In this document: positions 27,835-55,241 of the stretch, one piece after another
How positions within the stretch are numbered: the stretch's first letter is position 1
How the letters are laid out: every line of letters starts with the position of its first letter
From: a virus
Strand: one strand, 5' to 3'
Length of the DNA stretch: 64,000 nt
Virus record (IMG/VR): IMGVR_UViG_3300047321_000170
Coordinates: 1-64,000 of that record
The notes under the pieces: generated by a model
The model's input: the letters and a program-made list of their open reading frames with translations, nothing else
What the model was told of the DNA's origin: nothing
Databases searched by the model: none
Translations under genes and position numbers: made by a program

Positions 27835-27854
27835 CGCCCGTCCACCACCGGGCG
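27835..27854 (+). promoter_or_regulatory. Hairpin with TCCACCAC loop
   Basis: CGCCCG-TCCACCAC-CGGGCG, 18 nt before ATG 27873. Confidence 0.6.
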
Positions 27855-27872
27855 CCTACAAGGAAATGGATC

Positions 27873-28190
27873 ATGCCAGCTGGCCGCTACAACCTTTTGA
27901 TCGAGCAAGGCGCAACCTTCCGCCTTCCGTTCATCTATCGCGACGTGGGCGGTAATCCCGTCCAGTTCGACAACATGCAGGGCGTGATGACGCTGTTCGA
28001 TCCGAATGGCACAGTAGTCCTGAAGAAAACATCACCAGATGGTGTGCGCCTCGCAGTCGCAGGCTCGATCGACATCGAGCTGACGGCGGTCGAGACCGCA
28101 GCCCTCTCGGTCGGTGGGACGTATCGCTTCGAGCTGGTCAACGGCACGGATGTCGATCGGGTGCTCAAGGGAACGTGGAGCCTCGAATGA
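27873..28190 (+). CDS. Minor structural/fibre-anchor protein
   Basis: YNLLIEQGATF ... RVLKG pattern seen in phage minor tail proteins. Confidence 0.6.
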   Translation: MPAGRYNLLIEQGATFRLPFIYRDVGGNPVQFDNMQGVMTLFDPNGTVVLKKTSPDGVRLAVAGSIDIELTAVETAALSVGGTYRFELVNGTDVDRVLKGTWSLE

Positions 28191-29674
28191 GCGATACCAA
28201 TCTGGTTGTTGAAGTGCATCCGACGCTGCACAACACCGTCGAAGTGCGCGCGGCCTCTAAGGCGGTGGACGTGCTCCCGCAGACGGGCAATCAAGTCGAT
28301 ACACATCCGCTCTCGCCGCTCGTCGAAGTGCGCGCGCCTGGCCTTCAGGGGCCGAAGGGAGATCCGGGTGATGTCGGCCCGACTGGTCCTGCTGGTGCGC
28401 AGGGCGAGCAAGGTCCGGAAGGTCCGCAGGGCGTGCCGGGTCCGAAGGGCGACGTGGGCGATCACGGGCCGCAGGGCATTCAGGGCGAGAAAGGTGACCC
28501 CGGCGCGCAGGGTCCACAGGGCCTTCCCGGTGTAAAGGGTGACACCGGGCCGCAGGGTTTGCAGGGGCCGAAGGGTGATCAGGGCGACCCTGGCCCGCAG
28601 GGGCCGCAAGGCCTGAAGGGCGACAAGGGCGATCAGGGCGACCAGGGGCCGCAGGGGATTCCGGGTGTGAAGGGTGACACCGGAGCGGCCGGCGCGGCTG
28701 GCGCGCAAGGGCCGGTCGGCCCTGCCGGTGCCGATGGTCTGCAAGGCCCAGCTGGTCCGAAAGGCGACAAGGGTGACCCTGGCGCGCAGGGGCCGCAGGG
28801 CGAGGTTGGCCCGATGGGACCGGCAGGCAGCGGTGAGGGAAGCATCGGCCCGGAGGGGCCGCAGGGTGTGGCCGGCCCGCAGGGGCCGAAGGGCGACACA
28901 GGCGACGTGGGACCGGCAGGCGCGCAGGGGCCGCAGGGTGAACAAGGGCCAGCCGGTGCGGACGGAGCGCAGGGGCCGCAGGGCATCCAGGGCGAGCCGG
29001 GTCCGAAGGGCGACACAGGCGCGCAGGGGCCGCAGGGTATCCAAGGCGAGAAAGGCGACACAGGGGCGCAAGGTCCGCAGGGGCTTCAGGGTCTGAAGGG
29101 TGACCAAGGTGACCCCGGTGCGCAAGGGCCGCAAGGGCTAAAGGGCGACACCGGGGCGCAAGGGCCGCAGGGCTTGAAGGGCGACACCGGGGCGGCAGGC
29201 GCGCAGGGCATTCAGGGGCCGCAGGGCACGCAAGGTGTGCAGGGCGTGAAAGGCGACACGGGCGTGCAGGGACCGCAAGGTGTTGCTGGTCCCACCGGCG
29301 CCACCGGCCCGCAAGGGCCGAAGGGTGACCCAGGCGCTACTGGCCCAGGAGCTATTCCGCTCCCCGGCACGATCGCCACCGCGTCCAAGACACTGGCTCT
29401 CACCGATGCGCCCTCCCCGGCCTATCAGGGTGGCGTGCCGATGAACGTGGCGACGGCGAACACCGTGACCGTCCCGCCGAACGCGAGCGTGGCCTTCCCG
29501 GTCGGCACCATGATCATGGTCGGCCAGCTAGGCGCGGGGCAGACCAGCATCGTGGCCGGATCTGGCGTGACGCTGCGCACCAGCTCGTCGCTGACGCTGC
29601 GCGCGCAGTACTCGTGTGCCACGCTCTGGAAGGTGGACACCGATACGTGGATGGTGATGGGAGATCTGACGTGA
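28187..29674 (+). CDS. Long collagen-like fibre protein
   Basis: About 110 Gly-X-Y triplets (28340-29350); C-terminal [20 protein letters not shown] head domain. Confidence 0.9.
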
Positions 29675-30396
29675 TCCCGGCTGCGTTCCGATACCGCCCG
29701 ACGATTCCCTCGGGCGGGAGCATTCAGGTCGTCTCGACATCGAGCGCGGTCGCTGACGTGGCCGTGGCCAACTCGGGCAACGCGTTCGCCACGCTGCCAG
29801 CGCCATCGGGCATCGTCGCGGGGAACCTGCTGTTTGCGTACGCGGTGTACGACGATTTGAACGCCGTGTCATCCCTCGCGCCTGCCGGTTGGACGGTGCA
29901 GCGCGCGTACAACTACTCGACCCACAACAACACCGGCTTCATAGCCACCTTGTGGAAGATCGCGACCGCCAACGAGCCCGCGAGCTATTCGTTTGGCAGC
30001 GCGAGCATCAACACGATCAGCGTGGGGTGCGTTCAGCTGTCAGGCGTTTCGCAGAGCAACCCGTTCGGCGGGATAGGCCCCACGAATACCAAGATCAACT
30101 CGGCCACGACGACCTTCGCGACGCTCACGCGGGCGGTAGCAGGGCTTGAATTGCTGGTAGCGGGCACGGGCTCCAACTACTCCAGCACTGTCGCGAACGC
30201 GTGGACGCCACCCTCTGGATATACCCAGCTGCCCGCCGTGACGGGCAACTACAACAAGAACAACACGTCCGAGTCGCAGGCGATCTTCGCGGCGTACAAC
30301 CTCAACGCCCCGGTTGGTGCGACGGGGGCCTTGACCGGGACTCTCAATAAGGCTTACTACAACGGCACCTTCAATATCTCCTTCAACCCTGCCTGA
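29671..30396 (+). CDS. Putative fibre-tip/adhesin protein
   Basis: GTG overlaps the upstream TGA; PSG..AG.LL, PAGWT and WKIA...EP.SY.F; rich in Ser/Thr/Asn. Confidence 0.6.
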   Translation: MIPAAFRYRPTIPSGGSIQVVSTSSAVADVAVANSGNAFATLPAPSGIVAGNLLFAYAVYDDLNAVSSLAPAGWTVQRAYNYSTHNNTGFIATLWKIATANEPASYSFGSASINTISVGCVQLSGVSQSNPFGGIGPTNTKINSATTTFATLTRAVAGLELLVAGTGSNYSSTVANAWTPPSGYTQLPAVTGNYNKNNTSESQAIFAAYNLNAPVGATGALTGTLNKAYYNGTFNISFNPA

Positions 30397-30519
30397 TCGC
30401 TGTCACTACGCTACGCAATGAGACGCTAAGGAACGCCCTGGACTATACGATAGTCGGGGCGGAAGACTTGCAATTGAGGGAGAGCGCACATACGATGCGC
30501 CCTCTGGCCAACCCTCAAC

Positions 30520-30723
30520 ATGGAGCAAACGATGACACCCACCACTGTCACCACGCCCACCCCGAAGCTGTACCGAATTCAAGCCGTCATGCAGCAGCTC
30601 AGCGTCTCGCGCGCGACCGTCTATCGTCTCGTGAACAACGGCAAGCTGAAGCTGGTCAAGATCGGCGAACGCTCCAGCGGCATCACCGCGGAGAGCGTTG
30701 ACGCTCTGGTAGCCGGCGCCTAA
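30520..30723 (+). CDS. AlpA-family excisionase/recombination directionality factor
   Basis: LYRI..V...LSVSRATVYRLV..GKL winged helix, next to attP/int. Confidence 0.85.
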   Translation: MEQTMTPTTVTTPTPKLYRIQAVMQQLSVSRATVYRLVNNGKLKLVKIGERSSGITAESVDALVAGA

Positions 30724-31037
30724 CCGGACTCCTCTCTCGGGGGCAGTTTCTCCGCTGCCCCAAGCGGGGCCACTCTCTGTGGCCCCGATCCCAAGAATCC
30801 CCGCCTCGACATCTCCTGCATCATCAGCACACGCAGCTTTTCCAGTGCGACCAGCTGGCCACCCACGTCAACTTCCCAGCAACGCTGCACGACAACCCGA
30901 TAGCTTTCGACCTCGTCGAACAGCTCGCGCATTCGCACGACCTCCAGCACGAGCGCGCGGATCTCGTCTTGAGGGTACGTCCGATACAGGCGTCGCAAGT
31001 CCGTCATCGTCGGCGTTCCGAAATCTGGCAATCGCAT
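30720..31037 (-). CDS. Hypothetical protein, probably SOS-regulated
   Basis: 105 aa ORF with AGGAAG SD and a LexA box 15 nt upstream. Confidence 0.7.
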   Translation of the reverse strand: MRLPDFGTPTMTDLRRLYRTYPQDEIRALVLEVVRMRELFDEVESYRVVVQRCWEVDVGGQLVALEKLRVLMMQEMSRRGFLGSGPQRVAPLGAAEKLPPREESG

Positions 31038-31050
31038 GGCACTTCCTTAA

Positions 31051-31070
31051 TACTGTACGGATATACAGTA
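31051..31070. promoter_or_regulatory. LexA (SOS) box
   Basis: TACTGTACGGATATACAGTA = taCTGT-N8-ACAGta. Confidence 0.85.
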
Positions 31071-31112
31071 TCACGAACGCGCGCGGATGCCAGTACACTC
31101 GGGCGATTTTGC

Positions 31113-31418
31113 AGCTACCCACCCTTCTGCCCTACCACCCCAAAAGTGGGTAGCTAGTCGGGTAGCTAGAGCCTAATTTTACTGGTCTGTTCACCGCAAA
31201 CCCTTATGCAGCAAGGCTGCGAGAAATTCATGAAGATTGCCACCTGCAATCTCCATTGATGTGTTTTAACGTACCGGAGTGTTTCAGGCAATCCCCGGAA
31301 AGCCCTGCCCAGCAAGGGTTCGTGTTCCGTAGTGTTTCATAATGTTTCGCGATACCACGCGAAATATGGGTAGCTAGGTGGGTAGCTAGAGCACGTATAA
31401 TCGCGCCTAGCTACCCAC
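31113..31418. other. attP site with arm-type repeats and core
   Basis: Six GGGTAGCT(AG) repeats (31113 rev, 31146, 31160, 31367, 31378, 31407 rev) flank the core ATGAAGATTG-CCACCTG-CAATCTCCAT (31230-31256). Confidence 0.8.
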
Positions 31419-31432
31419 CACAGAGACCTACG

Positions 31433-32716
31433 ATGGCGCGTAAAACACATCTTCTGGACGACATCCAGATCCGGCACTGGATCGCCAAGGGCGAGCCGGT
31501 CGCCAAGTCAGATGGTGAAGGCCTGACCTTTACCCTCTCCTCAGCCGGCACCGCGAGCTGGATCTTGCGCTACCGCCGAGGCGGCGGTCGCCGTAAGGAA
31601 ATCACGATCGGCAACTATCCGGACATGACGCTCGCCGCGGCCCGAAAGGCTGCTCGTGCCCACCGCGTCGCGGTCGACAATGGGATAGACCCCGCAGCTG
31701 AGAAGAAGGTCGAGAAGGCGCGCTCCGTGCTCGCGTGGACCGTCAACGAGCTGTGCGACGACTACGAGGAGAAGCACCTGGTGGCGCCCCTCTCGAAGTC
31801 CACGATCTATTACCGGAAGTGGGACATCAAGAACATCATCCGGCCTAAGCTGGGTTCGCTCGAAGTTCGCAAGATCCTGCCTGCTGACATCGTCTACATT
31901 CTGGAGAACAGCGGGCGCACCTGGACGGTGAATAAGCGAATCCTTACATCTATGAAGCAGCTCTTTGGCCATGCGCTAGGGAAGCGGATCATCGACGTGA
32001 ACCCCGCCTTCGGTATCGAGATGAAGGCACTGTTCGGCAAACGCCCGCCCGTTCGCAAACGCCTGATGCTCACCGAGGGCGAGCTTCGCAAACTGCTGCC
32101 TGGCATTGACAAGAAGATCGGCCGCGAGAACGGCCTCATGCTGCGCGTGCTGCTGGCTACCTGCGTGCGAACGAACGAGCTGGTCATGGCCCGCAAGCAG
32201 TTCATCGATCTGAAGCGCGGCTCCTGGTTCGTACACGACGAGTCGGTCAAGACTCGTCAAGGCTTCACCGTCCCGCTGGTTCCTGTCGTCATTGGCTGGA
32301 TGAAAGAGCTGTACGCCCTGTCCGGAGACTCCGACTGGCTGTTGCCAGCTCGCAGCAACAAACGCCGCAACCGGCTTGGTGAAACTCATATCGGCAATAC
32401 CACGCTGTGGGCCGCGATCACGCGAGCGTTCCAATCTGAGAAGCTGGAGATGCGTCGCTTCACGCCGCACGATACGCGCAGCACCGCCAAAAGCCATATG
32501 CGGAATCTGGGCATCTCGAACGAAGTCAGTGAGCTTGCGCTTAACCACAAGCTCAAAGGTATGGAAGGGATCTATGACGTGCGAGAAGAGATCCCCGAGC
32601 GACGCGAGGCGATGGAGATATGGGCGCAGTTCATTGCAGACTGCTGCGACGGTAAGGAACCGGAAACGGGCCGACCAACGAACGTGGTCGCATTGAGAAG
32701 GAAGGCTGCGGCTTGA
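31433..32716 (+). CDS. int: Tyrosine integrase (P4-like, with arm-binding domain)
   Basis: SDGEGL..W..RYR..IG.YP N-domain; catalytic R(TCVR), HDTR, LNH and GIY. Confidence 0.95.
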   Translation: MARKTHLLDDIQIRHWIAKGEPVAKSDGEGLTFTLSSAGTASWILRYRRGGGRRKEITIGNYPDMTLAAARKAARAHRVAVDNGIDPAAEKKVEKARSVLAWTVNELCDDYEEKHLVAPLSKSTIYYRKWDIKNIIRPKLGSLEVRKILPADIVYILENSGRTWTVNKRILTSMKQLFGHALGKRIIDVNPAFGIEMKALFGKRPPVRKRLMLTEGELRKLLPGIDKKIGRENGLMLRVLLATCVRTNELVMARKQFIDLKRGSWFVHDESVKTRQGFTVPLVPVVIGWMKELYALSGDSDWLLPARSNKRRNRLGETHIGNTTLWAAITRAFQSEKLEMRRFTPHDTRSTAKSHMRNLGISNEVSELALNHKLKGMEGIYDVREEIPERREAMEIWAQFIADCCDGKEPETGRPTNVVALRRKAAA

Positions 32717-32718
32717 AT

Positions 32719-32743
32719 AAAAACGCCGGCTATGAGCCGGCGT
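32719..32743 (-). terminator. Terminator between convergent int and the early arm
   Basis: AAAA-ACGCCGGCT-ATG-AGCCGGCGT. Confidence 0.7.
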
Positions 32744-32746
32744 GTC

Positions 32747-32980
32747 TTACTGTGCTGTCTGTTCAATCGGCCAAGGCATTTCCATACCTTCGCGAATGAT
32801 TACCGCCATCTCGGTAGCTAGAACCAGCCGGATCTCTGGCGGCAAGTTCAACAGCGGATCTTTGATGTCCCTCCGGTCACACAGATCGTGCAGCACGCCT
32901 AGTGCAACGGCGTCCGCTCGATCAACTGGCTTGTGGCCGCTAAACGGGTACTGAATGCCTCTCGCGATGTCACGGTTCAT
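32747..32980 (-). CDS. Hypothetical protein
   Basis: 77 aa ORF with GGAGG SD. Confidence 0.65.
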   Translation of the reverse strand: MNRDIARGIQYPFSGHKPVDRADAVALGVLHDLCDRRDIKDPLLNLPPEIRLVLATEMAVIIREGMEMPWPIEQTAQ

Positions 32981-33015
32981 GATTGATCCTCCAAGGTCTT
33001 AGCTGTCACTATAGC

Positions 33016-33360
33016 TCACGCTGTCAGCTCCATCACGTCAACCAGCGCGCTCTCGAATTCGAACGGCTCGTAGTCGACCAGCTTGATGCCCCACGATCCA
33101 TCGAGCGGTGGCCAGCCCTCTACCTCCCCGCTGTTGAACGCTGCCTCCGGGTCCATGCGTTCCACGGACAGCGCCATGAACTCGACGCAGAGCATCGTGA
33201 GTACGGCCAGCAGCGCGCTGCCATGCTCGAAGACGCGGTCTTCCGCTCCGCTCCAGAAGTTGTTCAGCTCGTGGGCCTTCTCGTCGGTCAAGATCGAATG
33301 ATCGACCTCGACGGTCATGTCGTAGCCATCGGCGTACGTCAGCTGGTATTGCTTCTTCAT
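33016..33360 (-). CDS. DUF2528-like phage protein
   Basis: MTVEVDH...ELNNFWSG..EGWPPLDGS.GI pattern. Confidence 0.7.
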   Translation of the reverse strand: MKKQYQLTYADGYDMTVEVDHSILTDEKAHELNNFWSGAEDRVFEHGSALLAVLTMLCVEFMALSVERMDPEAAFNSGEVEGWPPLDGSWGIKLVDYEPFEFESALVDVMELTA

Positions 33361-33587
33361 AGGATCTCCTGCTCGCTCGGCTCGAAGGAGTGATCTTCTT
33401 CGAAGCGATACTTCAGCTTACGTTTCCACGCGAACTCTTCAGCGCGGTCCTTGTTTGAGAACAACCACAGGCCCGCGTGCGGCCCAGTCGGGATGCTGCA
33501 TCCAACCGCTTCCGGAAACAGCTTTTCGTCGAAGGAGAAGGCCGGTGTTTTAGGACACACTTCGAACACAATCTCGTTATCGCTCAT
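33357..33587 (-). CDS. Hypothetical protein
   Basis: ATGA-coupled chain, AAGGAG SD. Confidence 0.65.
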   Translation of the reverse strand: MSDNEIVFEVCPKTPAFSFDEKLFPEAVGCSIPTGPHAGLWLFSNKDRAEEFAWKRKLKYRFEEDHSFEPSEQEIL

Positions 33588-33799
33588 GTCGGCTCCTTCG
33601 GAACAGTGGTCATGAAACCGTCGAACAGGTCGCGCATCTTGTCCTGTACGTGCTCACTGGTGATCACGCTGGACTTCGCGACGATGCGAAGCTGGCGAGG
33701 CTGGTTGTTTTTGTCAAAACACTTCGCGCCGAACTCCCACGAGTGGTTGAGCAAGGCGCGGAAGCGGGCAGCGTCTGCCGCTTCAGATCTGCTGGTCAT
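33584..33799 (-). CDS. Hypothetical protein
   Basis: ATGA-coupled; DAARFR motif. Confidence 0.6.
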   Translation of the reverse strand: MTSRSEAADAARFRALLNHSWEFGAKCFDKNNQPRQLRIVAKSSVITSEHVQDKMRDLFDGFMTTVPKEPT

Positions 33800-34113
33800 G
33801 GCGTCTCCTTTTCGACGAGACCCAGCGACTGCGAATACTCCAGGAAGTGCTGGACCTTCGCCAGCTTCTTGCTGATGGCCACATGGTCAGGCTGGCCGAT
33901 GTCGAAGAAGAACTCTCCGTTCGAGACATCACCCAGGCGCTGCACCATAGCGAGCACGTCATTCAGCTCAGCATAAATCCGTTGTGCGTTCGTCTCAGTG
34001 CGCTCCGGGTGACGCTCGCTCAAGCCGAAGTGCGCGGCCTTCAACGCTATCTGCGCAACTTCTGCTGCTTCCTCGGCGAGCTTCACGAGGTAGTACTGCT
34101 GTAGCGTCATCAT
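33796..34113 (-). CDS. MazG-like all-alpha NTP pyrophosphatase-fold protein
   Basis: LAEEAAEV...ELNDV acidic motif. Confidence 0.65.
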   Translation of the reverse strand: MMTLQQYYLVKLAEEAAEVAQIALKAAHFGLSERHPERTETNAQRIYAELNDVLAMVQRLGDVSNGEFFFDIGQPDHVAISKKLAKVQHFLEYSQSLGLVEKETP

Positions 34114-35034: not shown

Positions 35035-35097
35035 CGGACACCTAATAAAATTTGGATAACTTTTAGTTGGGTAGATCCCGCCGAAGCGGGATCAACT

Positions 35098-36861: not shown

Positions 36862-36885
36862 CAGGGCCGGTGGTGGACGGCCCTG
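36862..36885 (-). promoter_or_regulatory. Hairpin with TCCACCAC loop
   Basis: mRNA CAGGGCCG-UCCACCAC-CGGCCCUG, 8 nt before the thyX ATG. Confidence 0.65.
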
Positions 36886-37473: not shown

Positions 37474-37501
37474 GATGTGGTGGTAGTGGTGGTGGTGAAA
37501 T

Positions 37502-41025: not shown

Positions 41026-41656
41026 CGACGACATCTCCGGCTGCTTGCAGCGAAGGATGTTTCGTCGAGTGCTCGCGCACAGCAAACAGCACCTTGATCT
41101 GGTGGAACACGTCGAACAGGGCGCTATGGGCGGGGCCAACGAACGGGATCAGGCGCTCGAACTCGGGAGGGGTCTGCGGCCAGTAGCGGCCACGAATCCA
41201 CGAGTTCATGTCGTTCGTCTGGCGGAAGTGGAACGGGTTCTGCACTTCGAACTGCTTGCAGTAACTTTCAATGAACGGATATTCGAAGTGCGACGGCTTC
41301 GCCCAGAGGCGCAGCGTGTCGTTGTACGGGTCAGTGCCGACGCGAGCCCACGTCACGAAGTCCTGCATGACCTTCGCGGGGTTCTCGCTGCGCTGCATGA
41401 TGCTGGTCAGGATCTCGCGCTTGTCTTTGAGCCACCAGCTGCGCGTCTCTTCATCGAAGTAGCGCTTGGGCGGCATGATCAGGCAGCGGTCGAAGGTGTC
41501 AGGATGGATCTCGCCTGAAGCGAGGTCGAAGCGAACGGCGGCGATCTGGATGATGGCGTTCTCGTCGGAGCGAGTACCAGTCGTTTCCAGGTCAACCATG
41601 AAATCAAGGCATTTTACGGTCATGTTGGGTGGCCAGAAGTTGTGAGAAAAGCACAT
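41012..41656 (-). CDS. DEDDh 3'-5' exonuclease (alternative start 41623)
   Basis: VDLETTG, IIQIAAV and HSALFD motifs. Confidence 0.85.
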   Translation of the reverse strand: MCFSHNFWPPNMTVKCLDFMVDLETTGTRSDENAIIQIAAVRFDLASGEIHPDTFDRCLIMPPKRYFDEETRSWWLKDKREILTSIMQRSENPAKVMQDFVTWARVGTDPYNDTLRLWAKPSHFEYPFIESYCKQFEVQNPFHFRQTNDMNSWIRGRYWPQTPPEFERLIPFVGPAHSALFDVFHQIKVLFAVREHSTKHPSLQAAGDVVDAVA

Positions 41657-42068
41657 GGTTCGAGATTCGGTGGTGGTCGATCTCGGCCCACTTCATCGAC
41701 TTTGTGGTGTTATCGATGATGTGCGACGCGTGGACTGCATACCAGATTCCATACGACTCTCGCCGGATGAAGAAGTAATAGTCCCCGCCTGCTGCTACTG
41801 CCTTGCGTGCTGCGCGCCACTGGTTCTTGGCGATCATGCTGAAGGGGAAAGACGGCTCCTTCACCGTGCTCTTCACTTCAGCGTAGAACATGCGGCCTTC
41901 CCATGTGACTGTGAAGTCAGAAGGCTGTGCGTCCTTGATTGCTCGTTGAAGCCCAGTGGCACCGCGCACATGCGCCGTGTCGGTAAGTCGCTCGACTGCT
42001 GCGCGCTTACCGAAAGGCGCAAAGAAGGAGATGAACTCCTCCTCTGCATCCTTCCAGACTTGCTTCAT
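41604..42068 (-). CDS. RecU-like Holliday junction resolvase (PD-(D/E)XK)
   Basis: E.EF...PSDF...YAEVKS...Q motif. Confidence 0.75.
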   Translation of the reverse strand: MKQVWKDAEEEFISFFAPFGKRAAVERLTDTAHVRGATGLQRAIKDAQPSDFTVTWEGRMFYAEVKSTVKEPSFPFSMIAKNQWRAARKAVAAGGDYYFFIRRESYGIWYAVHASHIIDNTTKSMKWAEIDHHRISNHVLFSQLLATQHDRKMP

Positions 42069-42151
42069 TTTTTCTTTGACTACGTGGTGGTGGTGTGCAT
42101 CGATTATATCTAGCTAGTACCTCTAAGGTTCAAGGAACTAGCTGATAGTTA

Positions 42152-46409: not shown

Positions 46410-46411
46410 CG

Positions 46412-46591
46412 TTACTCCTGCGCAGCTTTTTGCGCGCCGACCAGCGCGATGGCCAGGTTGGCGTGCTCCGGGTGTGCATTGAGCAGATCGTGGAGCTGGT
46501 TGGCGAGCCCCCACACCTTCGCCTTGACGATAGGTTCGAGCTTGCCTATCTCGTCCTCGACGAGCTTCAGTTGATGCTGAGCGATGTTCAT
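46412..46591 (-). CDS. Hypothetical 59-aa protein (not in ORF track)
   Basis: MNIAQHQLKLVEDEIGKLEP...; fills the gap. Confidence 0.55.
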   Translation of the reverse strand: MNIAQHQLKLVEDEIGKLEPIVKAKVWGLANQLHDLLNAHPEHANLAIALVGAQKAAQE

Positions 46592-46616
46592 TGTTTTGAT
46601 CCGTGGTGGTGGTGAT

Positions 46617-48205: not shown

Positions 48206-48381
48206 GTAAAAGCTCCAGTTTCATTAGCCAGGTTTCTGTGTCTTACTGCCCTCGCTGCTAAGGTGGTGGATCTCAGCGGCGAGTTCGAAGATCTTAACTT
48301 CGACCTTCTAACTATTCAATCGCATGTATATGCTACTTGCGACTGATAGATCCGCTTACGTGCTACTGCGCACATTCATTT

Positions 48382-49824
48382 TCATGAGAAGTCAGCCATA
48401 GAGATTTTGCGAGCGTGTGCCTTGCTCTTATCGAACATCTCTTTCTGGTCCTGACGCCGTTGTTCTGACAGCCTGAAGATCTCCTTCGTCGGATCGACCT
48501 TGTTTGCCTCAGTAGACTTCTGCTCGATGATCTGCATGATCCGCTGGTCAATCGAGTCGCGGTATTCGAGCACGTAGATCAGCAACGCTGTCTCACGCTT
48601 TCCACGAATACCTCGGCGATATGCCTGTACGAATGAGTCATCCATGTAGTTGAGCGAGCAGAAGACCATCACCTTCAGATGGTTCCAGTTAAAGCCAACG
48701 CCTGCCGTGTCAGCTGATGCAACCACGCAGTCGAGATGCCCAGCGCGGAACGCCTGGTCGATACCAGCTCGGCGTGCAGACGACACCGTGCCGTTGATCA
48801 GTCCGACGCGCAGACCCATCGACTTGGCGATTTCAACGATGCGCTCCTGCTCGGGGATAAGACACGCGAAGATCGCGATCGGCTCGCCCGACTGCTTGGC
48901 ATCTGCCAGGTGGATCTTCAAGCGTTCGTCCTTGCCTGTAGATTCGCCCTTGGCAATACCGAAGGTCTCCGGATGCGACATGATCTGACGGCATCGCATG
49001 GCATTGACTGCGGGTGTTGCTCCCTCCAGGAACTCGTCTTCCAGCTCGACCAGCGCTTCGTCTTCCATCTCCTCGTATGCGACGCGCTGCTTCGGCGACA
49101 TGTCGCACAGCTCGGTGACAATCACCTTGGCCTCTGGACCGTGGACTTCAGTGAAGGTATGGCGCACCGCGACGCGGGCCAGCACTGCCGACAACTTCTC
49201 GTGGTTGGTCCAACCGATCGTTTCGCCGTTAGCGCCTTGCAAGCGGTGGTAGCCGAGGAAGCCACCATAGGAGCCATAGAAGCGAGGTTCGATCACTTCG
49301 ATCGTTGGGTATGCACTGCCGAGATTGCCCTTGATGATCGTGCCGGTCATGCCCAGGTAATACTCGATCTGACGCATCGACAAGATCCAGTTCGTCGTGC
49401 GGCCGGCATTGTAGCCAGCGTAGCCAAGGTGCAGTTCGTCAACGACCACGGCGTTCAGCTCGGGCTGATAACTCTTCATCGCCTGCCAGTTATCTGACCA
49501 CTGCTGGAAGCCCATGATGAAGACTTTGGCTTCACGGTTCTGCATCTGCCTTTGGCGGCGCTTGCGATCACCATCGACTACCTGGACATCCTTGCTGTTG
49601 AAGCGCGTGAACTCCAGGATCTCGTCGCGGTTCTTACGCAGTAGCGACATCGGCATGACGAACGCCGTCTTCACGCCGCAGTTGTGCCAGAGGTAGTCCA
49701 TGTAGACGACCGCACTGCCGGTCTTCTGGCACGCCGGGTCAGACAAATTGAGGCAGCGCTTGGTCGCGATGTAGAACGCAAGATCGGCGATCTGGTGCTC
49801 GCGTAGAGCTTTCTTTTCAGTCAT
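48382..49824 (-). CDS. SF2 (SNF2-like) helicase
   Basis: LREHQ, KT, VVDELH, MTGT, GVGFN and QAYRRG.R motifs. Confidence 0.88.
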   Translation of the reverse strand: MTEKKALREHQIADLAFYIATKRCLNLSDPACQKTGSAVVYMDYLWHNCGVKTAFVMPMSLLRKNRDEILEFTRFNSKDVQVVDGDRKRRQRQMQNREAKVFIMGFQQWSDNWQAMKSYQPELNAVVVDELHLGYAGYNAGRTTNWILSMRQIEYYLGMTGTIIKGNLGSAYPTIEVIEPRFYGSYGGFLGYHRLQGANGETIGWTNHEKLSAVLARVAVRHTFTEVHGPEAKVIVTELCDMSPKQRVAYEEMEDEALVELEDEFLEGATPAVNAMRCRQIMSHPETFGIAKGESTGKDERLKIHLADAKQSGEPIAIFACLIPEQERIVEIAKSMGLRVGLINGTVSSARRAGIDQAFRAGHLDCVVASADTAGVGFNWNHLKVMVFCSLNYMDDSFVQAYRRGIRGKRETALLIYVLEYRDSIDQRIMQIIEQKSTEANKVDPTKEIFRLSEQRRQDQKEMFDKSKAHARKISMADFS

Positions 49825-50113
49825 TGGTTCTTCTCTTCTTCAGCTCAGCTTCCATCACTTGAAGACGGCGGCTAATGCGCTGTTTCAGATACCGCTCCAG
49901 TTCGGCGTCGAACTCTTGCTCAGCGAACATCTGGGCGTACTCACCTGTCAGCCCGGTCGGCGGAAGTGGGCGTGGCAGCGCTTCAGTGGGCGTGACCCAT
50001 CCGTTGCGACGCAGGAATTTGATCGCGTTGTCCAGATGCGCGTCGTCCATCTGCACGATAGAGAGTTCGCGCCCATCTCGGGTTCTCCAGACGGTGGGGT
50101 CAGGCCTACTCAT
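49817..50113 (-). CDS. Hypothetical protein
   Basis: WRTRDG..I..MDD.HL.N.I motif common in phage ORFs. Confidence 0.6.
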   Translation of the reverse strand: MSRPDPTVWRTRDGRELSIVQMDDAHLDNAIKFLRRNGWVTPTEALPRPLPPTGLTGEYAQMFAEQEFDAELERYLKQRISRRLQVMEAELKKRRTND

Positions 50114-50333
50114 CGTGGGTCTCCTCCATGTCCATTGCAAAGTTATGCAGCGCTTTCGTCGCCTCTTCAAAGCGACGTTCTGCCTTTCGCAGCTTGCGGT
50201 AGGCCTTCACCCACTCCGGGTGCTCGCGTTCGAGATCCGGCAGGATCTTCTCGAAGTCAACGAAGCTCTCAGGCTGCTTTTTCTCGGTGTAGTAGCAGAG
50301 GCTGAAGAGGTCGCCGGCTTTCAGCTTGCTCAT
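50106..50333 (-). CDS. Hypothetical protein
   Basis: Coupled ORF, GGAGG SD. Confidence 0.55.
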   Translation of the reverse strand: MSKLKAGDLFSLCYYTEKKQPESFVDFEKILPDLEREHPEWVKAYRKLRKAERRFEEATKALHNFAMDMEETHDE

Positions 50334-50593
50334 GCCGATCCTCCCGCGTCTGCATGCCGCGCGTCGTGGTAGCTGCACCACGCGTCGGGCGACACCTTGT
50401 AGTAGAAGCCGTTGCGATCCTGGATCAGCAGCCGATGCTCCATCAGCTTGCCGAGGATCGCTCCAGCGGTGCGGCCATGTGCGTTGGCCATGTCGGCGAG
50501 CGACATGCCCGACTCGAAGCGCGCCTTCAGCTGTGCGCGCTCTTCCGGCGTCCAGGTCGTTCCAGCGTTACTGCGGTTGAAGGTCTCGCTCAT
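50330..50593 (-). CDS. Small HTH/Myb-like DNA-binding protein
   Basis: AG..WTPEE..L...F..G....MA..HGRT.GAI motif. Confidence 0.65.
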   Translation of the reverse strand: MSETFNRSNAGTTWTPEERAQLKARFESGMSLADMANAHGRTAGAILGKLMEHRLLIQDRNGFYYKVSPDAWCSYHDARHADAGGSA

Positions 50594-50868
50594 TTGTTCT
50601 TGCTCCCATCGTTCCAGTCCCACGCTTGCCAGTCGCCGTTTTCTGGCAGCTCAGCCTTGACCTCGCGACCGGCCCACTTCTCGAAGGCTTCCATGCTCAC
50701 CTTCGGGTAGCGACGACCGTTGGTGACACTTGGGCTGTCGTACTGGACCTGCGAACCGAACGAGTCGATCCAGAGAATTTGGCGATCATTCACCAGCGGC
50801 CTCAACATTGAGCCGGCAGCGACCGGGCGCTTCGCGCGCCATACCTGCCCCACCTGGAACTTGCTCAT
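50590..50868 (-). CDS. Hypothetical protein
   Basis: ATGA-coupled ORF. Confidence 0.6.
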   Translation of the reverse strand: MSKFQVGQVWRAKRPVAAGSMLRPLVNDRQILWIDSFGSQVQYDSPSVTNGRRYPKVSMEAFEKWAGREVKAELPENGDWQAWDWNDGSKNK

Positions 50869-51584
50869 GCTGCCCTCCCCCGTGCCTGCGGCAGATCCGA
50901 AAGCGGATCTTCGCGCCGCGCGTGCCGCTTCAGCACCGTCATGCCAAGGGCTTCGAGCGGCAACGAAACGATGTGGCCTTCCTCACCGGCCAGGAGAGCC
51001 GTTTGCAGCCGCACAGCGGGCTTGCTGACGATCAGGTCAGCCGTACCCGTCACGATTACGCGGCGGGCGCTGTAGCGGGCCTGGGAGACGATCTCGTCGA
51101 GGATCTTCTGGTGCTTCGGCGTGGCCTGCGTGAGGACCAGCGGTTGCACGTTCGTGCGGTCCAGCTCGAAGACCAGGTCCGACATCGAGAAGTGCCATAT
51201 GCGGCGCACGATCGGCGTGAGCGGGCTGCTCATGCGCGACAGCGTCAGCAGCGTCAGGTTCAGCTCGTCGTTGGTGTCTTCCACCACGTAGACGCCGGCC
51301 TCGTGGTCCTGCTTAGGGATCGGCAGCATGGCCTGGACCAACGGGTCGCGCGCAAGCGCCTGAAACTGCTTCCAGTGGATGACATCCGGCACTGGGGCGC
51401 CGGTCGGGAACAGGTGGTTGCACATCGCGCGTCTCGACGGGACGACCAGGAACGGCGACGGCGCGCGCAGCGACATGAAGTTCTGCACGGAGCGCGCCTG
51501 GTGCAGATAGGCGATGCCTTCAGGCGTCCAGTGCAGGCCATACATCGCCACTTCGATCTTGTTGTTCTGTACTTCTGTATTCAT
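50865..51584 (-). CDS. Hypothetical protein
   Basis: 239 aa, ATGA-coupled on both sides. Confidence 0.65.
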   Translation of the reverse strand: MNTEVQNNKIEVAMYGLHWTPEGIAYLHQARSVQNFMSLRAPSPFLVVPSRRAMCNHLFPTGAPVPDVIHWKQFQALARDPLVQAMLPIPKQDHEAGVYVVEDTNDELNLTLLTLSRMSSPLTPIVRRIWHFSMSDLVFELDRTNVQPLVLTQATPKHQKILDEIVSQARYSARRVIVTGTADLIVSKPAVRLQTALLAGEEGHIVSLPLEALGMTVLKRHARREDPLSDLPQARGRAA

Positions 51585-51985
51585 AGCTTGACCAGTTCGT
51601 TGAGCGGCTTCTTCGTGTACTGCACGAGATCCATAAGATCCATGAGCGTCACGTCATAGCGCCCGTGTTCGACAGCGAGCACCTTGTGTGCGGTCCAGCC
51701 CAAGCGTTCCGCGCATTCGCGGCGGGTTTGCTTGAGTTCCAGGACGCGGTGGGTGGCCAGTAGTTCGCCGAGCTTTTCATGCACGCGCGAGAGGGACTTG
51801 CGCGGCTGCTTCGGCTGATCGTCGGGGGTCTCTGGCTTCTTCCGGTTTGCAGCGGTCACGCCTTTGGCGCGCACGATCGCCCTGATCGATGGAACCGATA
51901 GGGAGAAGTCGCGCGCGAGCTTCGAGGCGGGAACACCGGACGCGTAGAGATCCGCGATCTGTTGATCGCGTTCCTCTTTGCACAT
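51581..51985 (-). CDS. Two-HTH transcriptional regulator (C-terminal XRE-like)
   Basis: N-terminal HTH plus TRRECAERLGW....VE.GRYD.TL. Confidence 0.7.
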   Translation of the reverse strand: MCKEERDQQIADLYASGVPASKLARDFSLSVPSIRAIVRAKGVTAANRKKPETPDDQPKQPRKSLSRVHEKLGELLATHRVLELKQTRRECAERLGWTAHKVLAVEHGRYDVTLMDLMDLVQYTKKPLNELVKL

Positions 51986-51992
51986 GGGAAGA

Positions 51993-52220
51993 TCAGACCT
52001 TCTGGAAAGGGAAAGTCTGGGGGTTCTTCTTGATCAGCCGGCTGAAGGTGCTGCCGAACGATTCCGCGGTGGTCAGTTGATCGACCGTGCCTTGATCGAC
52101 GTTGCTGTACTGATACTCGTCGCCGTTCTTCACGAAGACGATGTTCAGCTTCTTGTTGTTCGCGTCATAGGCGAACGCCGAGATTTGTGACGAAGTCACA
52201 GGTGTGTAGCCAGGTTTCAT
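51993..52220 (-). CDS. KTSC-domain protein
   Basis: PVTSSQI....YD....L.I.F..G..Y.Y.NV......L..AES.G..F..IK. Confidence 0.85.
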   Translation of the reverse strand: MKPGYTPVTSSQISAFAYDANNKKLNIVFVKNGDEYQYSNVDQGTVDQLTTAESFGSTFSRLIKKNPQTFPFQKV

Positions 52221-52292
52221 GTTTCGATCCAGTAGATGAAAGTTATTACAGTAGGACGCTCGGTGGTGGACGTGCGTCTTACCGTATGCTGT

Positions 52293-52565
52293 TTAGATAA
52301 CTGCCGTGATGTTCTCCTTCTTGACGGGGTGTTCCATGTGGACGGAGACGACCGGATGCGTGCGACCGTAGATCGTGAGACAGATCGGATCGCCAGCATT
52401 CAGCCGTGCAAGTTCTTCAGGAGTCGGCAACCAGAATGAAGAGTAGGCATTCGACTCTTCATCGCGGTGTGCTGGCAGCGTGTGGCACTTGCCGTCTTTC
52501 GCCTCGTCCCAGTTAGTGGGTGCGCCGAGCCGCGCGTTCGTCAGCGTTGTGTCAACGATGTTCAT
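52293..52565 (-). CDS. Hypothetical protein
   Basis: GAP.NWD...C..LP...S.W.PT.EEL..LN.G..I.L pattern. Confidence 0.65.
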   Translation of the reverse strand: MNIVDTTLTNARLGAPTNWDEAKDGKCHTLPAHRDEESNAYSSFWLPTPEELARLNAGDPICLTIYGRTHPVVSVHMEHPVKKENITAVI

Positions 52566-52783
52566 GCGGTCCTCCCGTGCGCGGCCTTCCAGACGATCCA
52601 GTAGCGGTGGACCTCGCTGTTGAGGTAGCCATCGTCTTTCGGATCACGTTCGAGCGACAGGCCTTCGAGGATTTCCAGCTTCTCGAACACGTCGCGGCGC
52701 AGCCAGCCATAGCGGCGCTTCTCGTACTTGCGCCGGATCGGCATGGGGAACGGGCTGGCGGGTTGGGGCTGTGCTGTGGTCAT
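52562..52783 (-). CDS. Hypothetical protein
   Basis: ATGA-coupled ORF. Confidence 0.55.
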   Translation of the reverse strand: MTTAQPQPASPFPMPIRRKYEKRRYGWLRRDVFEKLEILEGLSLERDPKDDGYLNSEVHRYWIVWKAAHGRTA

Positions 52784-53040
52784 GACGGAACCCTCGTGCG
52801 CCGCAGGCGGTCACGCAGACCCTTGAGCTTGTTCTTCTGCTCTTTGGTCAGCATGTTCGTGTTGAGCAGGTTCTTGACTGCCTTGTTCCACTTCTCGCGG
52901 TTGACGGTCTTGGGCTCCGGATCACCCTCTTCGGTGATCGCGATCAGCTCCTTGTAGGTGAGCAGCTTCTCGCCGGTCGTCATCATCGCGGTGAACGCGG
53001 CGGAAGCCGCGTTAGGCGTGGTGGTCGATTTCGATTCCAT
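52780..53040 (-). CDS. Hypothetical protein
   Basis: Coupled ORF. Confidence 0.5.
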   Translation of the reverse strand: MESKSTTTPNAASAAFTAMMTTGEKLLTYKELIAITEEGDPEPKTVNREKWNKAVKNLLNTNMLTKEQKNKLKGLRDRLRRTRVPS

Positions 53041-53338
53041 TGTGGGTGCTCATGAAGATGCCCACGATCGACGGATCGTCGATTGCTTGTCCGAACCAGT
53101 GGCCAGGGTCCAGACGGGCATTGATGATTGTTTTCATCTCCTCCCACATCTTCAAGCCTTCATCGTTCCAGAACATGTGGTGGTTGTCCCGGATCGCCTG
53201 CTTGAGTCCATGCGGAAGGTACTTTTCTTTCAGCTCGACGAACGCGTCGATGTCAACTTTTAGCAACACTCCAAGGCCGACATCGACCACGTCACGCATC
53301 GCGCCGCTCTCGGCCTGATACACGACGAGTGCGGTCAT
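53012..53338 (-). CDS. Hypothetical protein
   Basis: ATG 53338 coupled to the upstream stop. Confidence 0.55.
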   Translation of the reverse strand: MTALVVYQAESGAMRDVVDVGLGVLLKVDIDAFVELKEKYLPHGLKQAIRDNHHMFWNDEGLKMWEEMKTIINARLDPGHWFGQAIDDPSIVGIFMSTHNGIEIDHHA

Positions 53339-53547
53339 TGCGTCACTACCGCGTTCGGCGGGAACTCGCTCAGCTCGAAGAGATTGAACTTCTCGACTAC
53401 TTGCAGAGCCTTGAGCGTGTTCATCGTCTTCATCCACGCGTCGAGCACGCGTGGGTGATCGAAGTAACGCGTCTGGACTTCTCCCGACGCGTACGTGATA
53501 AACATCACGAGCTTGTCACCTGGATAGATGGTCTTTTCCAACGGCAC
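53335..53547 (-). CDS. Hypothetical protein
   Basis: GTG start after AAGGAGG. Confidence 0.55.
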   Translation of the reverse strand: MPLEKTIYPGDKLVMFITYASGEVQTRYFDHPRVLDAWMKTMNTLKALQVVEKFNLFELSEFPPNAVVTQ

Positions 53548-54064
53548 GTAAAACCTCCTTGATCATCTCTGGCGGAAAATCCGCCATGTATGGGTGGTTA
53601 GCGACATCATCGTAACAACGCGGCTGCGTGACGGCGAGCAGAGACTCCATCAGCTCCTTGCATTCCTGCCGTTGCTCGGTGCGCGGATCTCCGGTTGGCG
53701 TTCCGGCCATGAACATCGCTGCATCCTTATCGCGCAATAGCCAGTGATCGGGGTTGCAACACAGGGTGTTGCCGCAACGGTTCACCAGGCGGTACTTCGG
53801 CGTCTTCAGGATATGCGGGGTCGACCACTCGTACACGATCTTGTGCGGAGCCATGCGCTTGTTCTTTCCCAGCTTCACGAGACCGTAGGGCTTCGTGACG
53901 ACAGGCTGATAGAACGGCGTACGGTCGCGGGTTCGCATCATCTGCAAACGCGGGCCGGCCTTCGTCTTGGCTCCTGTCCAGGGCCAGCAGACGTTAGGCG
54001 TTCCGAAGTTGGTGATGCGAGACTTGATGCGATCGACGAGCAGCTGAAGCTGTTCCTCGGTCAC
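53516..54064 (-). CDS. HNH/His-Me finger endonuclease-like protein
   Basis: CWPWTGA, YG, HKIVY and CGNTLCCNPDH motifs. Confidence 0.7.
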   Translation of the reverse strand: MTEEQLQLLVDRIKSRITNFGTPNVCWPWTGAKTKAGPRLQMMRTRDRTPFYQPVVTKPYGLVKLGKNKRMAPHKIVYEWSTPHILKTPKYRLVNRCGNTLCCNPDHWLLRDKDAAMFMAGTPTGDPRTEQRQECKELMESLLAVTQPRCYDDVANHPYMADFPPEMIKEVLRAVGKDHLSR

Positions 54065-54159
54065 AGGCCACCTTTGCGGGGCGCAGAAGAAAGGGGTTTC
54101 ATGTTGACTCCATTGTCAGAATGCTCAAGCGCGGTGGTGGTCGCGCATCCTACAGATAC

Positions 54160-54192
54160 AAAAAAGCCGCGCCTGGCAGGGCGCGGCTTTTT
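54160..54192 (-). terminator. Intrinsic terminator (bidirectional form)
   Basis: AAAAAAGCCGCGCC-TGGCAG-GGCGCGGCTTTTT. Confidence 0.85.
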
Positions 54193-54202
54193 CGGGTACG
54201 GC

Positions 54203-54625
54203 TTAGTGCGCCGACTTAGCCAGCGTCGGGATCAGCTTGAAGTGCTTCGACAGATACGTCAGCACCTGGTCGCCGTGTTCCGCGAGGTTCGACAGCAGCG
54301 CTTCTTCGGTGATCGCGGCCGGCAGCGTGCGACCTTCAGCGACCGTGGTGCCGTCGACAACGACCGGCTCGATCACTTCGGTCTTCGCGCCCTTGAACAA
54401 CAGGCCGATGGCCTGCTTCAGCGTCGCGGTGCGCTCGGCGACGAACGCTTCACGGGCCTTCTGTTGAGCCTGGAAGGCGGCTTCTTGTGCCGGGGTCCAG
54501 TTGGTCGCGGCCTTCGGTGCGCCGCGCAGTGCGCGAGGCGTCTTACCGTCATTGCCACCCTTGCTCTTGGCCGGGGCTGCGTTCGTCTTCGTCGTCTTTG
54601 CGTTCGTGGTGGTGTTCGTGTCCAT
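54203..54625 (-). CDS. Hypothetical protein with basic low-complexity N-terminus
   Basis: 140 aa, AGGA SD, own terminator. Confidence 0.65.
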   Translation of the reverse strand: MDTNTTTNAKTTKTNAAPAKSKGGNDGKTPRALRGAPKAATNWTPAQEAAFQAQQKAREAFVAERTATLKQAIGLLFKGAKTEVIEPVVVDGTTVAEGRTLPAAITEEALLSNLAEHGDQVLTYLSKHFKLIPTLAKSAH

Positions 54626-54723
54626 CTTCTAGTTCCTGGTACAGGTTAAAGAACGTCAGGCCAGTGACGTGGTTTCACCTAGCCCGTGGTGCGGGCCGGG
54701 CAGTTTCGATCCGGTATCGGGTA

Positions 54724-54963
54724 TTACAGAGCGCGGTTGTTCGCCAGCTCGGCGTTGAACACGCGACCGCGAGCAGTATTGCCGCGCAGTTCGTAGGAGA
54801 CCTTAGCATCCTCGAACTGCTTAGTGATATAGCCGTGGATTTCAACGCCATCCCATTCAGCAGGCATCACTTCGATTGCCTTTACGACCTTGTCGGTCAC
54901 CGTCTTCAGGAGGTCTTTAGCGAACTTGCGCTTTTGGGCCAGGCTCAGCGTCTTCTGTTGCAT
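54724..54963 (-). CDS. Hypothetical protein
   Basis: 79 aa, AAGGA SD. Confidence 0.6.
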   Translation of the reverse strand: MQQKTLSLAQKRKFAKDLLKTVTDKVVKAIEVMPAEWDGVEIHGYITKQFEDAKVSYELRGNTARGRVFNAELANNRAL

Positions 54964-55241
54964 TTGGTTACAAATCCTTTATAGGTCGTCGATATTACCT
55001 TACTAGGTCGCTCTGTGGTGGAAGATTTGACCTTTCTTTTTGTGCTTAAGACATCCTCTCACACGTTGACCGCCTGCTCAGGATATGTCTTGCGTGAAGG
55101 CGTATAACCGCCGACCCGTCTGTACGCTGCACGGCGTACATCGAAGGTTCGAATTGTAAGATGAAACCTTCAATCTTGGGGCTGCAACTATACGATAGTT
55201 ACGTTCCTTTCTTCTCGTAAGGTTCGCCACCGCACAGTCTT

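Follow-up and report, generated by a model that had tools for sequence, protein, structure and literature searches.

CCACCAC hairpins, (CAC)n leaders and a complementary small RNA gene in a phage probably infecting Burkholderia

The DNA considered here is a window of 64,000 nucleotides (nt), bases 1-64000 of the 82,936-bp IMG/VR virus record IMGVR_UViG_3300047321_000170, which carries direct terminal repeats at its ends. Rightward genes extend from about 75.8 kb, through the terminal repeat, to 32.7 kb, and leftward genes occupy the segment from 75.6 kb to 33.0 kb. The subject of the analysis is the heptamer CCACCAC, which stands in the leaders of many of these genes, either in the loop of a hairpin or in an open (CAC)n run, together with a gene for a small RNA (sRNA) of about 165 nt, located outside the window, one loop of which is complementary to the heptamer. 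Of the named phages, JWF and 2-1 of Achromobacter are nearest, with an identity that is patchy and amounts to about 70%. A search with the SbcC-like protein returned ten IMG/VR relatives at 57-78% identity, several of which are proviruses in isolate genomes, and a search with the capsid protein returned a prophage in Burkholderia paludis MSh1 (81% identical). Because of this capsid match and the provirus status of the relatives, the hosts of the clade are probably Burkholderia. Whole genomes were compared for this phage (G000), five relatives of about 80 kb that are phages or proviruses (G001-G005), JWF and 2-1.

Hairpins and open leaders of the CCACCAC family

A reading of the sequence alone had described seven unrelated stems in gene leaders that display one and the same loop, and all seven stem-loops are present with the arms it gave and with NCCACCAC as the loop in the mRNA sense (Table 1). 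With the motif held unpaired, six of them are stable (-11.0 to -17.3 kcal/mol), and the seventh, at 55005-55033, is weaker (-7.4 kcal/mol). The further remark that each lies within about 70 nt upstream of a start is not very informative, given the short intergenic gaps of this phage. Two details of the description have to be corrected. The loop of the hairpin at 48251-48283 has 9 nt in this genome and 8 nt in the relatives, and the hairpin at 41661-41685 sits inside the 3' end of the resolvase open reading frame (ORF), with the true start of the exonuclease gene probably about 70 nt downstream of it and not 4 nt. This start is probably the ATG giving MVDLETTG, right after the resolvase stop codon, as against position 41656 chosen by the longest-ORF call (41590-41656, - strand).

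The heptamer occurs 43 times in the window, against 7.3 copies expected. When CCACCAC was constrained to be unpaired during folding, 11 of its 61 sites in the whole genome were found in 8-9-nt loops of hairpins at or below -10 kcal/mol, compared with 0.72 expected from 40 shuffles of the flanks (maximum 2); among the 11 are one site that is the reverse strand of the sRNA gene and two that fall within coding sequence. The corresponding counts in the relatives were 8 (0.57 expected) in G001, 6 (1.55) in G002, 5 (0.90) in G003, 7 (1.00) in G004 and 3 (0.88) in G005, and those in JWF and 2-1 were 1 (1.32) and 0 (1.00), respectively. Moreover, when intergenic hairpins with a perfect stem and an 8-nt loop are compared, NCCACCAC is the most frequent loop in five of the six clade genomes (21 of 1253 pooled), and it was not found among such hairpins of JWF and 2-1.

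The 29 hairpins collected from the six genomes align without gaps, with seven invariant loop bases and a variable first one. Double-sided changes are seen at all ten stem positions, and 78% of the cells pair compared with 48% after shuffling, a value that is partly built in, since the set was chosen by folding. A covariance model made from these 29 hairpins, a check that the sequence-only reading had also proposed, gave 28 matches at E ≤0.01, all of them in the six clade genomes or in the B. paludis prophage, and the best score in JWF or 2-1 was no better than E 0.36. An exact 14-mer scan of IMG/VR returned at least 115 stretches, and 58 of the 80 examined showed no pairing beyond the 3 bp that the pattern itself demands, as would be expected of chance matches.

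The independent evidence for conservation is the position at gene junctions. Hairpins stand at orthologous junctions of G001-G005, often on other stems. At the junction before the thymidylate-synthase-like gene (36862), the hairpin is found in all four relatives that have the gene, on altered stems (AGGGGCG/CGCUCCU and CAGGGGCG/CGUCCCUG). The 48251 junction carries it in four of five relatives on unrelated stems (CUCGCCGCUGAG here, as against CUCGACGUG/CACGGCGAG and CUCACCCCC/GGGGGUGAG), and so does the capsid junction, outside the window, in four of five, mostly as a tandem pair. The hairpin is kept in three of five relatives at 41661, where G002 shows a compensating change (AUAG/CUAU) inside coding sequence, and in two of five at 52251; the 55005 junction bears stronger hairpins in two of three relatives (G002 and G003). 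The 27835 hairpin is kept in the relative L012, and its downstream gene has no orthologue in any of the seven genomes compared. At eight junctions where the downstream gene has an orthologue, hairpins were found at 0 of 8 in JWF and 0 of 8 in 2-1; JWF has U-tract terminators instead at two of these junctions, the equivalents of 36862 and 52251.

Besides the hairpin loops, unpaired (CAC)3-5 or CCACCAC stands 0-16 nt upstream of many start codons. The suspected link between the hairpins and these open leaders is supported. The motif is single-stranded in either setting: the hairpins always show it in the loop, and the windows around the open runs have a folding energy of about 0 kcal/mol. In the six genomes taken together, the motif stands no more than 40 nt upstream of the start in 87 of 653 genes, and the distances from motif to start cluster at 0-3 and 9-16 nt. 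The genes concerned pair weakly with the anti-Shine-Dalgarno (anti-SD) sequence, the mean being -2.5 kcal/mol for motif genes and -4.8 kcal/mol for the 241 genes that lack the motif and have a gap of 15 nt or more; the means for this genome by itself are -2.1 kcal/mol for 20 motif genes and -5.6 kcal/mol for those 33 motif-less genes that have their own leader (p ~1e-4).

A small RNA gene with a loop complementary to the motif

The sRNA gene occupies 72290-72453 on the + strand of the genome (L062 8290-8453), running antisense to the operons on either side. Its predicted sigma-70-type promoter, TTGCAA and TATAGT separated by 17 nt on the + strand, was found by a promoter scan too, and in 10 homologues it stands at the same position, with a spacer of divergent sequence. 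The predicted RNA comprises four covarying hairpins, the linker GUUUUGAUCC and a strong intrinsic terminator, that is, a hairpin followed by a U run. The first hairpin has a GCUGCG/CGCAGC stem and a 17-nt apical loop, UGAUCUGUGGUGGUGAG (seed 1), and within this conserved loop lies GUGGUGGUG, the exact complement of CCACCAC. The linker is the second conserved exposed segment (seed 2). The consensus of the 10 homologues contains 34 pairs, 15 of them with compensating changes, and the seed-1 loop is invariant while its stem varies (GCUGCG, GCUUCG, GCUUGA, GCUUCA). Among 340 stem cells, G-U occurs in 52 and A-C in 5, and the consensus energy is -48.3 kcal/mol on the + strand and -38.5 kcal/mol, about 10 kcal/mol worse, on the opposite one; therefore, the + strand is the one that folds. 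The z-score of the fold is -3.3.

The distribution of the gene follows that of the motif family. At E ≤10, nhmmer detected it in all six genomes of the motif clade and in neither of the two Achromobacter phages, and it is also present in four of four further proviruses. B. paludis MSh1 has a single copy of the 16-mer of the sRNA loop, at a distance of 8.6 kb from the capsid gene of the prophage; the spacing in this phage is the same. This 16-mer was not found in JWF or 2-1 at up to one mismatch, and inspection of the gap equivalent to the sRNA locus in these two phages showed nothing similar. An anchor scan of IMG/VR for variants of the sRNA returned 36 stretches, comprising 11 true homologues with an identical loop and 25 chance matches in coding sequence. 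A scan of the whole genome against Rfam gave 0 matches at the gathering threshold, and no related family, the C4 antisense RNA and GcvB included, was listed for the sRNA locus at E ≤10. No paper on this motif or this sRNA was found in a literature search. The sequence-only reading had spoken of an undescribed regulon of protein-bound hairpins, and these searches agree with the first half of that description; the second is taken up below.

A third invariant segment of the sRNA, GGUGGCCAGC (about 72357-72371; L062 8357-8371), forms the top of stem-loop 3 with the loop GGCCA and contains GGUGG, a partial complement of the motif. A promoter-like TTGACG-N16-TAGTCT at 72487-72514 (- strand; L062 8487-8514) is directed into the sRNA gene in antisense orientation, with a LexA-type box, CTGT-N8-ACAG, as its spacer. 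An SOS-triggered antisense promoter was rejected as a general part of the system, the LexA box being present only in G000 and G001 (two of six genomes).

The complementarity extends beyond the heptamer. Seed 1 is complementary both to CCACCAC and to the fuller leader consensus UCACCACCACAGA. In 17 open leaders of this genome, the upstream flank has U at -3 (10/17), C at -2 (13/17) and A at -1 (14/17), and the downstream flank has A at +1 (11/17), G at +2 (7/17) and A at +3 (8/17), so that flanks and motif together make up the complement of UCUGUGGUGGUGA. Contiguous complements of seed 1 of at least 9 nt are found in 15 of 115 leaders of this phage and in 14/97, 12/109, 6/107, 13/101 and 6/124 leaders of the relatives, compared with 1/111 in JWF, 0/112 in 2-1 and 0.6-0.8% of genome tiles. 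When complements of at least 7 nt to either seed are counted, 24 of 115 leaders, belonging to about a fifth of the genes, are included.

Seed 2 is complementary to GGAUCAAAAC, which recurs directly upstream of start codons, and here the sRNA and the leaders are seen to change together. The seed 2 of G002 reads GUUUCGAUCC, with a U to C change, and the leaders of the same genome carry GGATCGA six times and GGATCAA not once, the corresponding A to G change; in the leaders of the other five genomes, GGATCGA occurs 3 times and GGATCAA 26 times (Fisher p = 5e-5 versus G002). The switch is found in G002 at orthologous leaders, namely those of the capsid gene and of the orthologues of 46412 and 66585, and the orthologue of the 46589..46614 leader reads GGAUCGAAAC, matching the sRNA of G002. 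The targets in genomes whose sRNA has the U carry A or G, as wobble pairing allows. The two kinds of site may also act together, since GGAUC(A/G)A...AUG lies no more than 150 nt downstream of 12 of the 29 seed hairpins, the two being 32-34 nt apart at the capsid and 51993-type leaders, an arrangement that suggests two-point binding of the sRNA.

Proposed role of the small RNA and alternative explanations

The sequences show a motif family, an sRNA gene with a conserved structure, complementarity between the two, their co-occurrence and a joint change of seed 2 and its leaders. The reading that we favour, and consider probable though well short of settled, is that a single trans-acting sRNA encoded by the phage targets both the hairpin loops and the (CAC)n leaders and probably represses translation. 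Production of the sRNA, its pairing and the repressive outcome are what we infer from these features. Seed 1 would pair over 7 bp with the hairpin loops in a loop-loop ('kissing') contact of about -12 kcal/mol and over 9-14 nt with unstructured leaders of the consensus given above, and seed 2 would pair with GGAUC(A/G)AAAC directly upstream of start codons. The hairpin may be understood as the structured version of the target, in which the 7-nt word is kept single-stranded within G+C-rich leaders in a form suited to loop-loop contact. Pairing would occlude ribosome binding and in this way repress translation; repression is the predicted outcome because the open runs and the seed-2 sites overlap the ribosome-binding region and the motifs stand where a Shine-Dalgarno (SD) sequence is missing. 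The regulon would take in about 20-25 genes of every class, among them genes for capsid, lysis, replication and antirestriction, and in the absence of the sRNA the C-rich motif would serve as an SD-independent ribosome-binding or enhancer element. The idea of a phage-wide post-transcriptional regulon on variable stems, put forward when the hairpins were first noticed, gains support from the conserved and non-random hairpin family and the (CAC)n leaders.

The likely partner of the loops is an RNA and not a protein. The earlier comparison with protein-bound hairpins was founded on lambda boxB/N and CsrA, which likewise have a conserved loop on variable stems. Those loops bind proteins, whereas a complementary RNA, and no candidate protein, was found here. 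Lambda boxB/N has one or two promoter-proximal sites, in contrast to the roughly ten hairpins spread over early and late regions in this phage, and the CsrA/RsmA loop contains GGA, whereas all 29 aligned hairpins have NCCACCAC and no GGA. A phage RNA-binding or NusG/RfaH-like protein was sought with Pfam and PHROGs among 10 clade-specific proteins, with Pfam among 44 early proteins and with a six-frame NusG search, and none was found, a negative that applies less to small arginine-rich N-type proteins, which could escape Pfam. With no RNA-binding family found and an sRNA loop that is the exact complement of the motif, the protein-bound analogy finds no support here. One of the 44 early proteins weakly matches the T4 Alc family (PF17527, E 0.0019).

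Several observations weigh against the proposed regulon or limit its reach. A look for RNA runs containing this DNA returned none. Seed 1 is invariant in all homologues found, which leaves the hairpin loops outside a compensatory-change test; since it never varies, the link between seed 1 and the loops is drawn from complementarity and co-occurrence. In the predicted fold of the sRNA, a 3-bp inner helix (AUC:GGU) closes part of seed 1, so that UGUGGU alone is fully open. The first base of the hairpin loop is mostly U where pairing would need A, which indicates no selection at this position. At loose thresholds RNAduplex did not separate leaders from coding sequence, and contiguous-complement counts were used instead. 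GGATCAA is also found in three leaders of JWF and two of 2-1; it is therefore taken to be partly an ordinary ribosome-binding site that the sRNA came to match. Blocking of the ribosome is no obvious outcome for the several hairpins that are separated from the start codon by 40-148 nt. Conservation is patchy, with the 54129 hairpin at 0 of 4 and the 71453 hairpin at 0 of 5 orthologous junctions, and G005 has the sRNA with little excess of hairpins. In the hairpin stems, 17 G-U cells stand against 15 A-C cells, a ratio that does not name the strand and does not distinguish RNA folding from DNA folding. Finally, gene calls came from a simple custom caller, and starts are approximate, those of the capsid and exonuclease genes being visibly wrong.

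Among the alternatives, the one that survives best, although we regard it as unlikely, is that CCACCAC alone is an SD-independent ribosome-binding or enhancer element or a protein site, with the complementarity to the sRNA secondary or irrelevant. It accords with the lack of SD sequences at motif-bearing genes and with the two clusters of motif-to-start distances. Passages of Barendt et al. 2012 (PMC3310771) give CCACC as the commonest 5-mer among fast-translating non-SD sites selected in vitro and note C-rich 5' untranslated regions in phages, including a Burkholderia phage, and a part of PMC3879156 describes ACA motifs that enhance translation in Salmonella; both favour such an element, and the CCACC-type sequence directly before SD-less starts resembles the arrangement seen here. 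However, according to the same passages of PMC3310771, C-rich sites did poorly in E. coli cells, and the pairing proposed there is a broad one with 16S rRNA, whereas the phage has one fixed sequence that is matched by its own RNA and has no 7-mer complement in the 16S rRNA of relatives of the host. The 16S genes were taken from three relatives of B. paludis, the draft of B. paludis itself giving no 16S match; they have a canonical anti-SD tail and contain neither GTGGTGG (GUGGUGG in the RNA) nor GTGGTG, and TGGTGG is only internal (positions 89 and 249). Wide use of the element by the host is not indicated either, because the core 12-mer CGWCCACCACCG stays at background level in the five Burkholderia genomes counted (12-25 copies in 6.5-8.6 Mb, compared with 10-15 for the control), and a protein site is disfavoured by the searches of the 54 phage proteins and six frames described above. 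Nor would it explain why the flanks share a consensus, why motif and sRNA occur together and why seed 2 and its leaders changed jointly. This alternative overlaps with the sRNA-target reading, which also assumes a basal function of the motif.

That the sRNA activates its targets, by opening structure, stabilising the mRNA or helping to recruit ribosomes at SD-less leaders, is considered improbable. The presence of high-output genes among the targets (the capsid gene with its tandem hairpins, the tape-measure chaperone and endolysin genes) would suit activation, and UGAUC, which occurs in both exposed segments of the sRNA, is complementary to GGAUCA of the 16S 3' tail. On the other hand, pairing of seed 2 covers about -13 to -4 relative to the start, which normally blocks initiation, the open runs adjoin the ATG, and no precedent was found in the literature search. 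A special form, which we hold to be very unlikely, would make the sRNA an adaptor replacing the missing SD sequence, with GUGGUGG holding CCACCAC of the mRNA and a free UGAUC pairing with the 16S tail; the leader flanks are indeed mostly unpaired with UGAUC. If that were true, SD-less phage mRNAs would be tethered to the ribosome, and about a fifth of the phage genes would need one phage RNA to be translated.

An equally slight chance is given to the hairpins being structural elements at operon junctions, such as factor-dependent terminators, antiterminators, processing sites or stabilisers, with the loop kept for a protein. Several hairpins do stand right after stop codons, JWF has annotated intrinsic terminators at two of the junctions, and the 48251 hairpin, which begins 7 nt past a -10-like TAAGAT, could be a 5'-terminal stabiliser. 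An intrinsic terminator needs a U run, however, and 0 of the 7 hairpins have a U tract, while ordinary terminators are found elsewhere, for example a canonical one 14 nt upstream of the 54129 hairpin. For RNase III, stems of 5-12 bp are short; each genome has about ten sites, as against one or two close to promoters; and this reading gives no account of open (CAC)n runs at start codons. For the same lack of U tracts, short stems and number of sites, nothing found here points to the antitermination or processing that the sequence-only reading had listed among the possible functions. A DNA-level element, either lagging-strand-template hairpins for priming or helicase loading or a Chi-like GTGGTGG oriented with replication, would fit the flip of motif orientation with the genes at about 32.9 and 75.7 kb, which also suits bidirectional replication, and the almost purely Watson-Crick stems, but can scarcely be credited in view of the concentration of the motif in leaders by SD-less start codons, the exact complement carried by an RNA gene and the open runs without a hairpin.

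Known RNA systems share single traits with the one proposed here. The CI RNA of phage P4 is a loop-borne antisense immunity factor that acts by premature termination. In S. aureus RNAIII and in OxyS-fhlA, loops of the sRNA kiss hairpin loops of target mRNAs near the ribosome-binding site, and several targets share a loop motif. The polarity of RNAIII is reversed, with C-rich sRNA loops acting on G-rich SD loops, and RNAIII and OxyS are host RNAs. The c4 antisense RNA of P1 and P7 is a small phage RNA whose loop sequences pair in trans with phage mRNA and bring about lytic shut-off, as outlined in passages of a 2025 review (PMC12197685, citing Citron and Schuster 1990). Both c4 and P4 CI have one or two sites in one operon, unlike the approximately 20-25 sites throughout the genome and the two seeds found here. 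GcvB of enterobacteria, as described in a part of PMC3879156, has a G/U-rich exposed seed and C/A-rich elements upstream of many starts, its targets being translation enhancers; it is host-encoded and acts on host amino-acid genes, whereas in this case a phage sRNA would act on the phage's own genes through a strict CCACCAC motif shown at some targets in hairpin loops.

Should the sRNA-target reading be true, a single phage RNA would address about 20-25 of its own genes of every class, whereas the phage sRNAs described in the passages of PMC12197685 target one phage gene or host genes. A fixed 7-nt word would replace the SD sequence and be presented in hairpin loops at some sites, giving a natural case of regulon-wide loop-loop recognition combined with SD-independent initiation on C-rich leaders. 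The sRNA would then be an RNA-level master switch of a temperate Burkholderia phage, which may act as or alongside the immunity system. Because sRNA and leaders have changed in concert in one relative, compensatory mutants offer a direct test of the pairing.

Positions of the motif-bearing features and minor observations

Table 1. Hairpins and open leaders carrying the motif in this phage. Positions are those of the window, except the last hairpins, which lie beyond it and are marked; scores refer to folding energy and to the covariance model (CM).
Feature	Position	Strand	Energy and score	Context
Hairpin CGCCCG-UCCACCAC-CGGGCG	27835..27854	+	-11.8 kcal/mol; CM 29.2 bits, E 5.8e-5	stop codon of upstream gene 7 nt before; ATG (27873) 18 nt after
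Hairpin CAGGGCCG-UCCACCAC-CGGCCCUG	36862..36885	-	-17.3 kcal/mol; CM 36 bits	8 nt upstream of ATG (36853)
Hairpin CGAGAUCG-ACCACCAC-CGAAUCUCG, one bulge	41661..41685	-	-15.0 kcal/mol; CM E 0.18	upstream of exonuclease gene
Hairpin CUCGCCGCUGAG-AUCCACCAC-CUUAGCAGCGAG	48251..48283	-	-16.4 kcal/mol	ATG (48205) 45 nt downstream
Hairpin GUAAGACGCACG-UCCACCAC-CGAGCGUCCUAC	52251..52282	-	-15.6 kcal/mol; CM 29.3 bits	after 32 nt GGAUCGAAAC-AUG (52218-52230)
Hairpin GCGCG-ACCACCAC-CGCGC	54129..54146	-	-11.0 kcal/mol; CM 26.5 bits	13-codon upstream ORF 26 nt downstream
Interrupted hairpin AGGUC..UCU-UCCACCAC-AGA..GACCU	55005..55033	-	-7.4 kcal/mol; CM E 0.058	ATG (54963) 41 nt downstream
Candidate extra hairpin UCCGGGACA-ACCACCACA-UGUUCUGGA	53167..53194	-	-12.7 kcal/mol	in coding sequence; chance possible
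Extra hairpin, outside window	71453	-		
Tandem hairpins (by folding), outside window	80772 and 80822	+		before major capsid gene
Open (CAC)4	3503..3514	+		abuts ATG 3515, tape-measure chaperone homologue; no SD sequence
Open (CAC)3	16673..16681	+		1 nt before ATG 16683
Open UCACCACCACAG	18796..18804	+		6 nt before ATG 18811
Open CUCACCACCACCACAGA	20653..20664	+		3 nt before GTG 20668, endolysin homologue
Open CCACCACAGAG	31415..31421	+		11 nt before ATG 31433; 13 nt past a TATAAT
Open (CAC)4-UA-CCACCAC	37477..37497	-		3 nt before ATG 37473, MazG-like
Open (CAC)4	42084..42095	-		15 nt before ATG 42068, resolvase
Two-motif leader, (CAC)4 then directly GGAUCAAAAC-A-AUG	46589..46614	-		
Open (CAC)3	56722..56730	-		3 nt before ATG 56718, ArdA antirestriction homologue
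Leader with (CAC)5, then GGAUCAAUC-AUG	57084..57116	-		
Open CUCACCACCACAGAG	59672..59680	-		9 nt before ATG 59662

The 13-codon upstream ORF that follows the 54129 hairpin, MKPLSSAPRKGGL (54061-54102, - strand), has a good GGAG site, and its terminal GTGA overlaps the GTG of a gene for 182 amino acids (54064), an arrangement that looks like translational coupling or a leader peptide. A palindrome, GTGCAG-N2-4-CTGCAC with T runs, recurs in leaders of the early region (about 71340-71400, 65670-65690 and 68150-68170, - strand) and is found in G001 too; it could be an operator or a short attenuator. The gene at 55939-56718 (- strand), which has a (CAC)3 leader without an SD sequence, encodes an ArdA-type antirestriction protein (Pfam E 8e-28) with a zinc-ribbon-like N-terminal extension.

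In the resolvase leader (42096-42108, - strand), a TATAAT stands 7 nt upstream of the (CAC)4 run both here and in ten relatives, including L012-L020 (TATACT in L020), and because of this conserved hexamer the run may be the 5' end of the transcript. About 15 CAC units are found upstream of a small gene in G005 (69464-69509), which indicates that the length of the runs is unstable.

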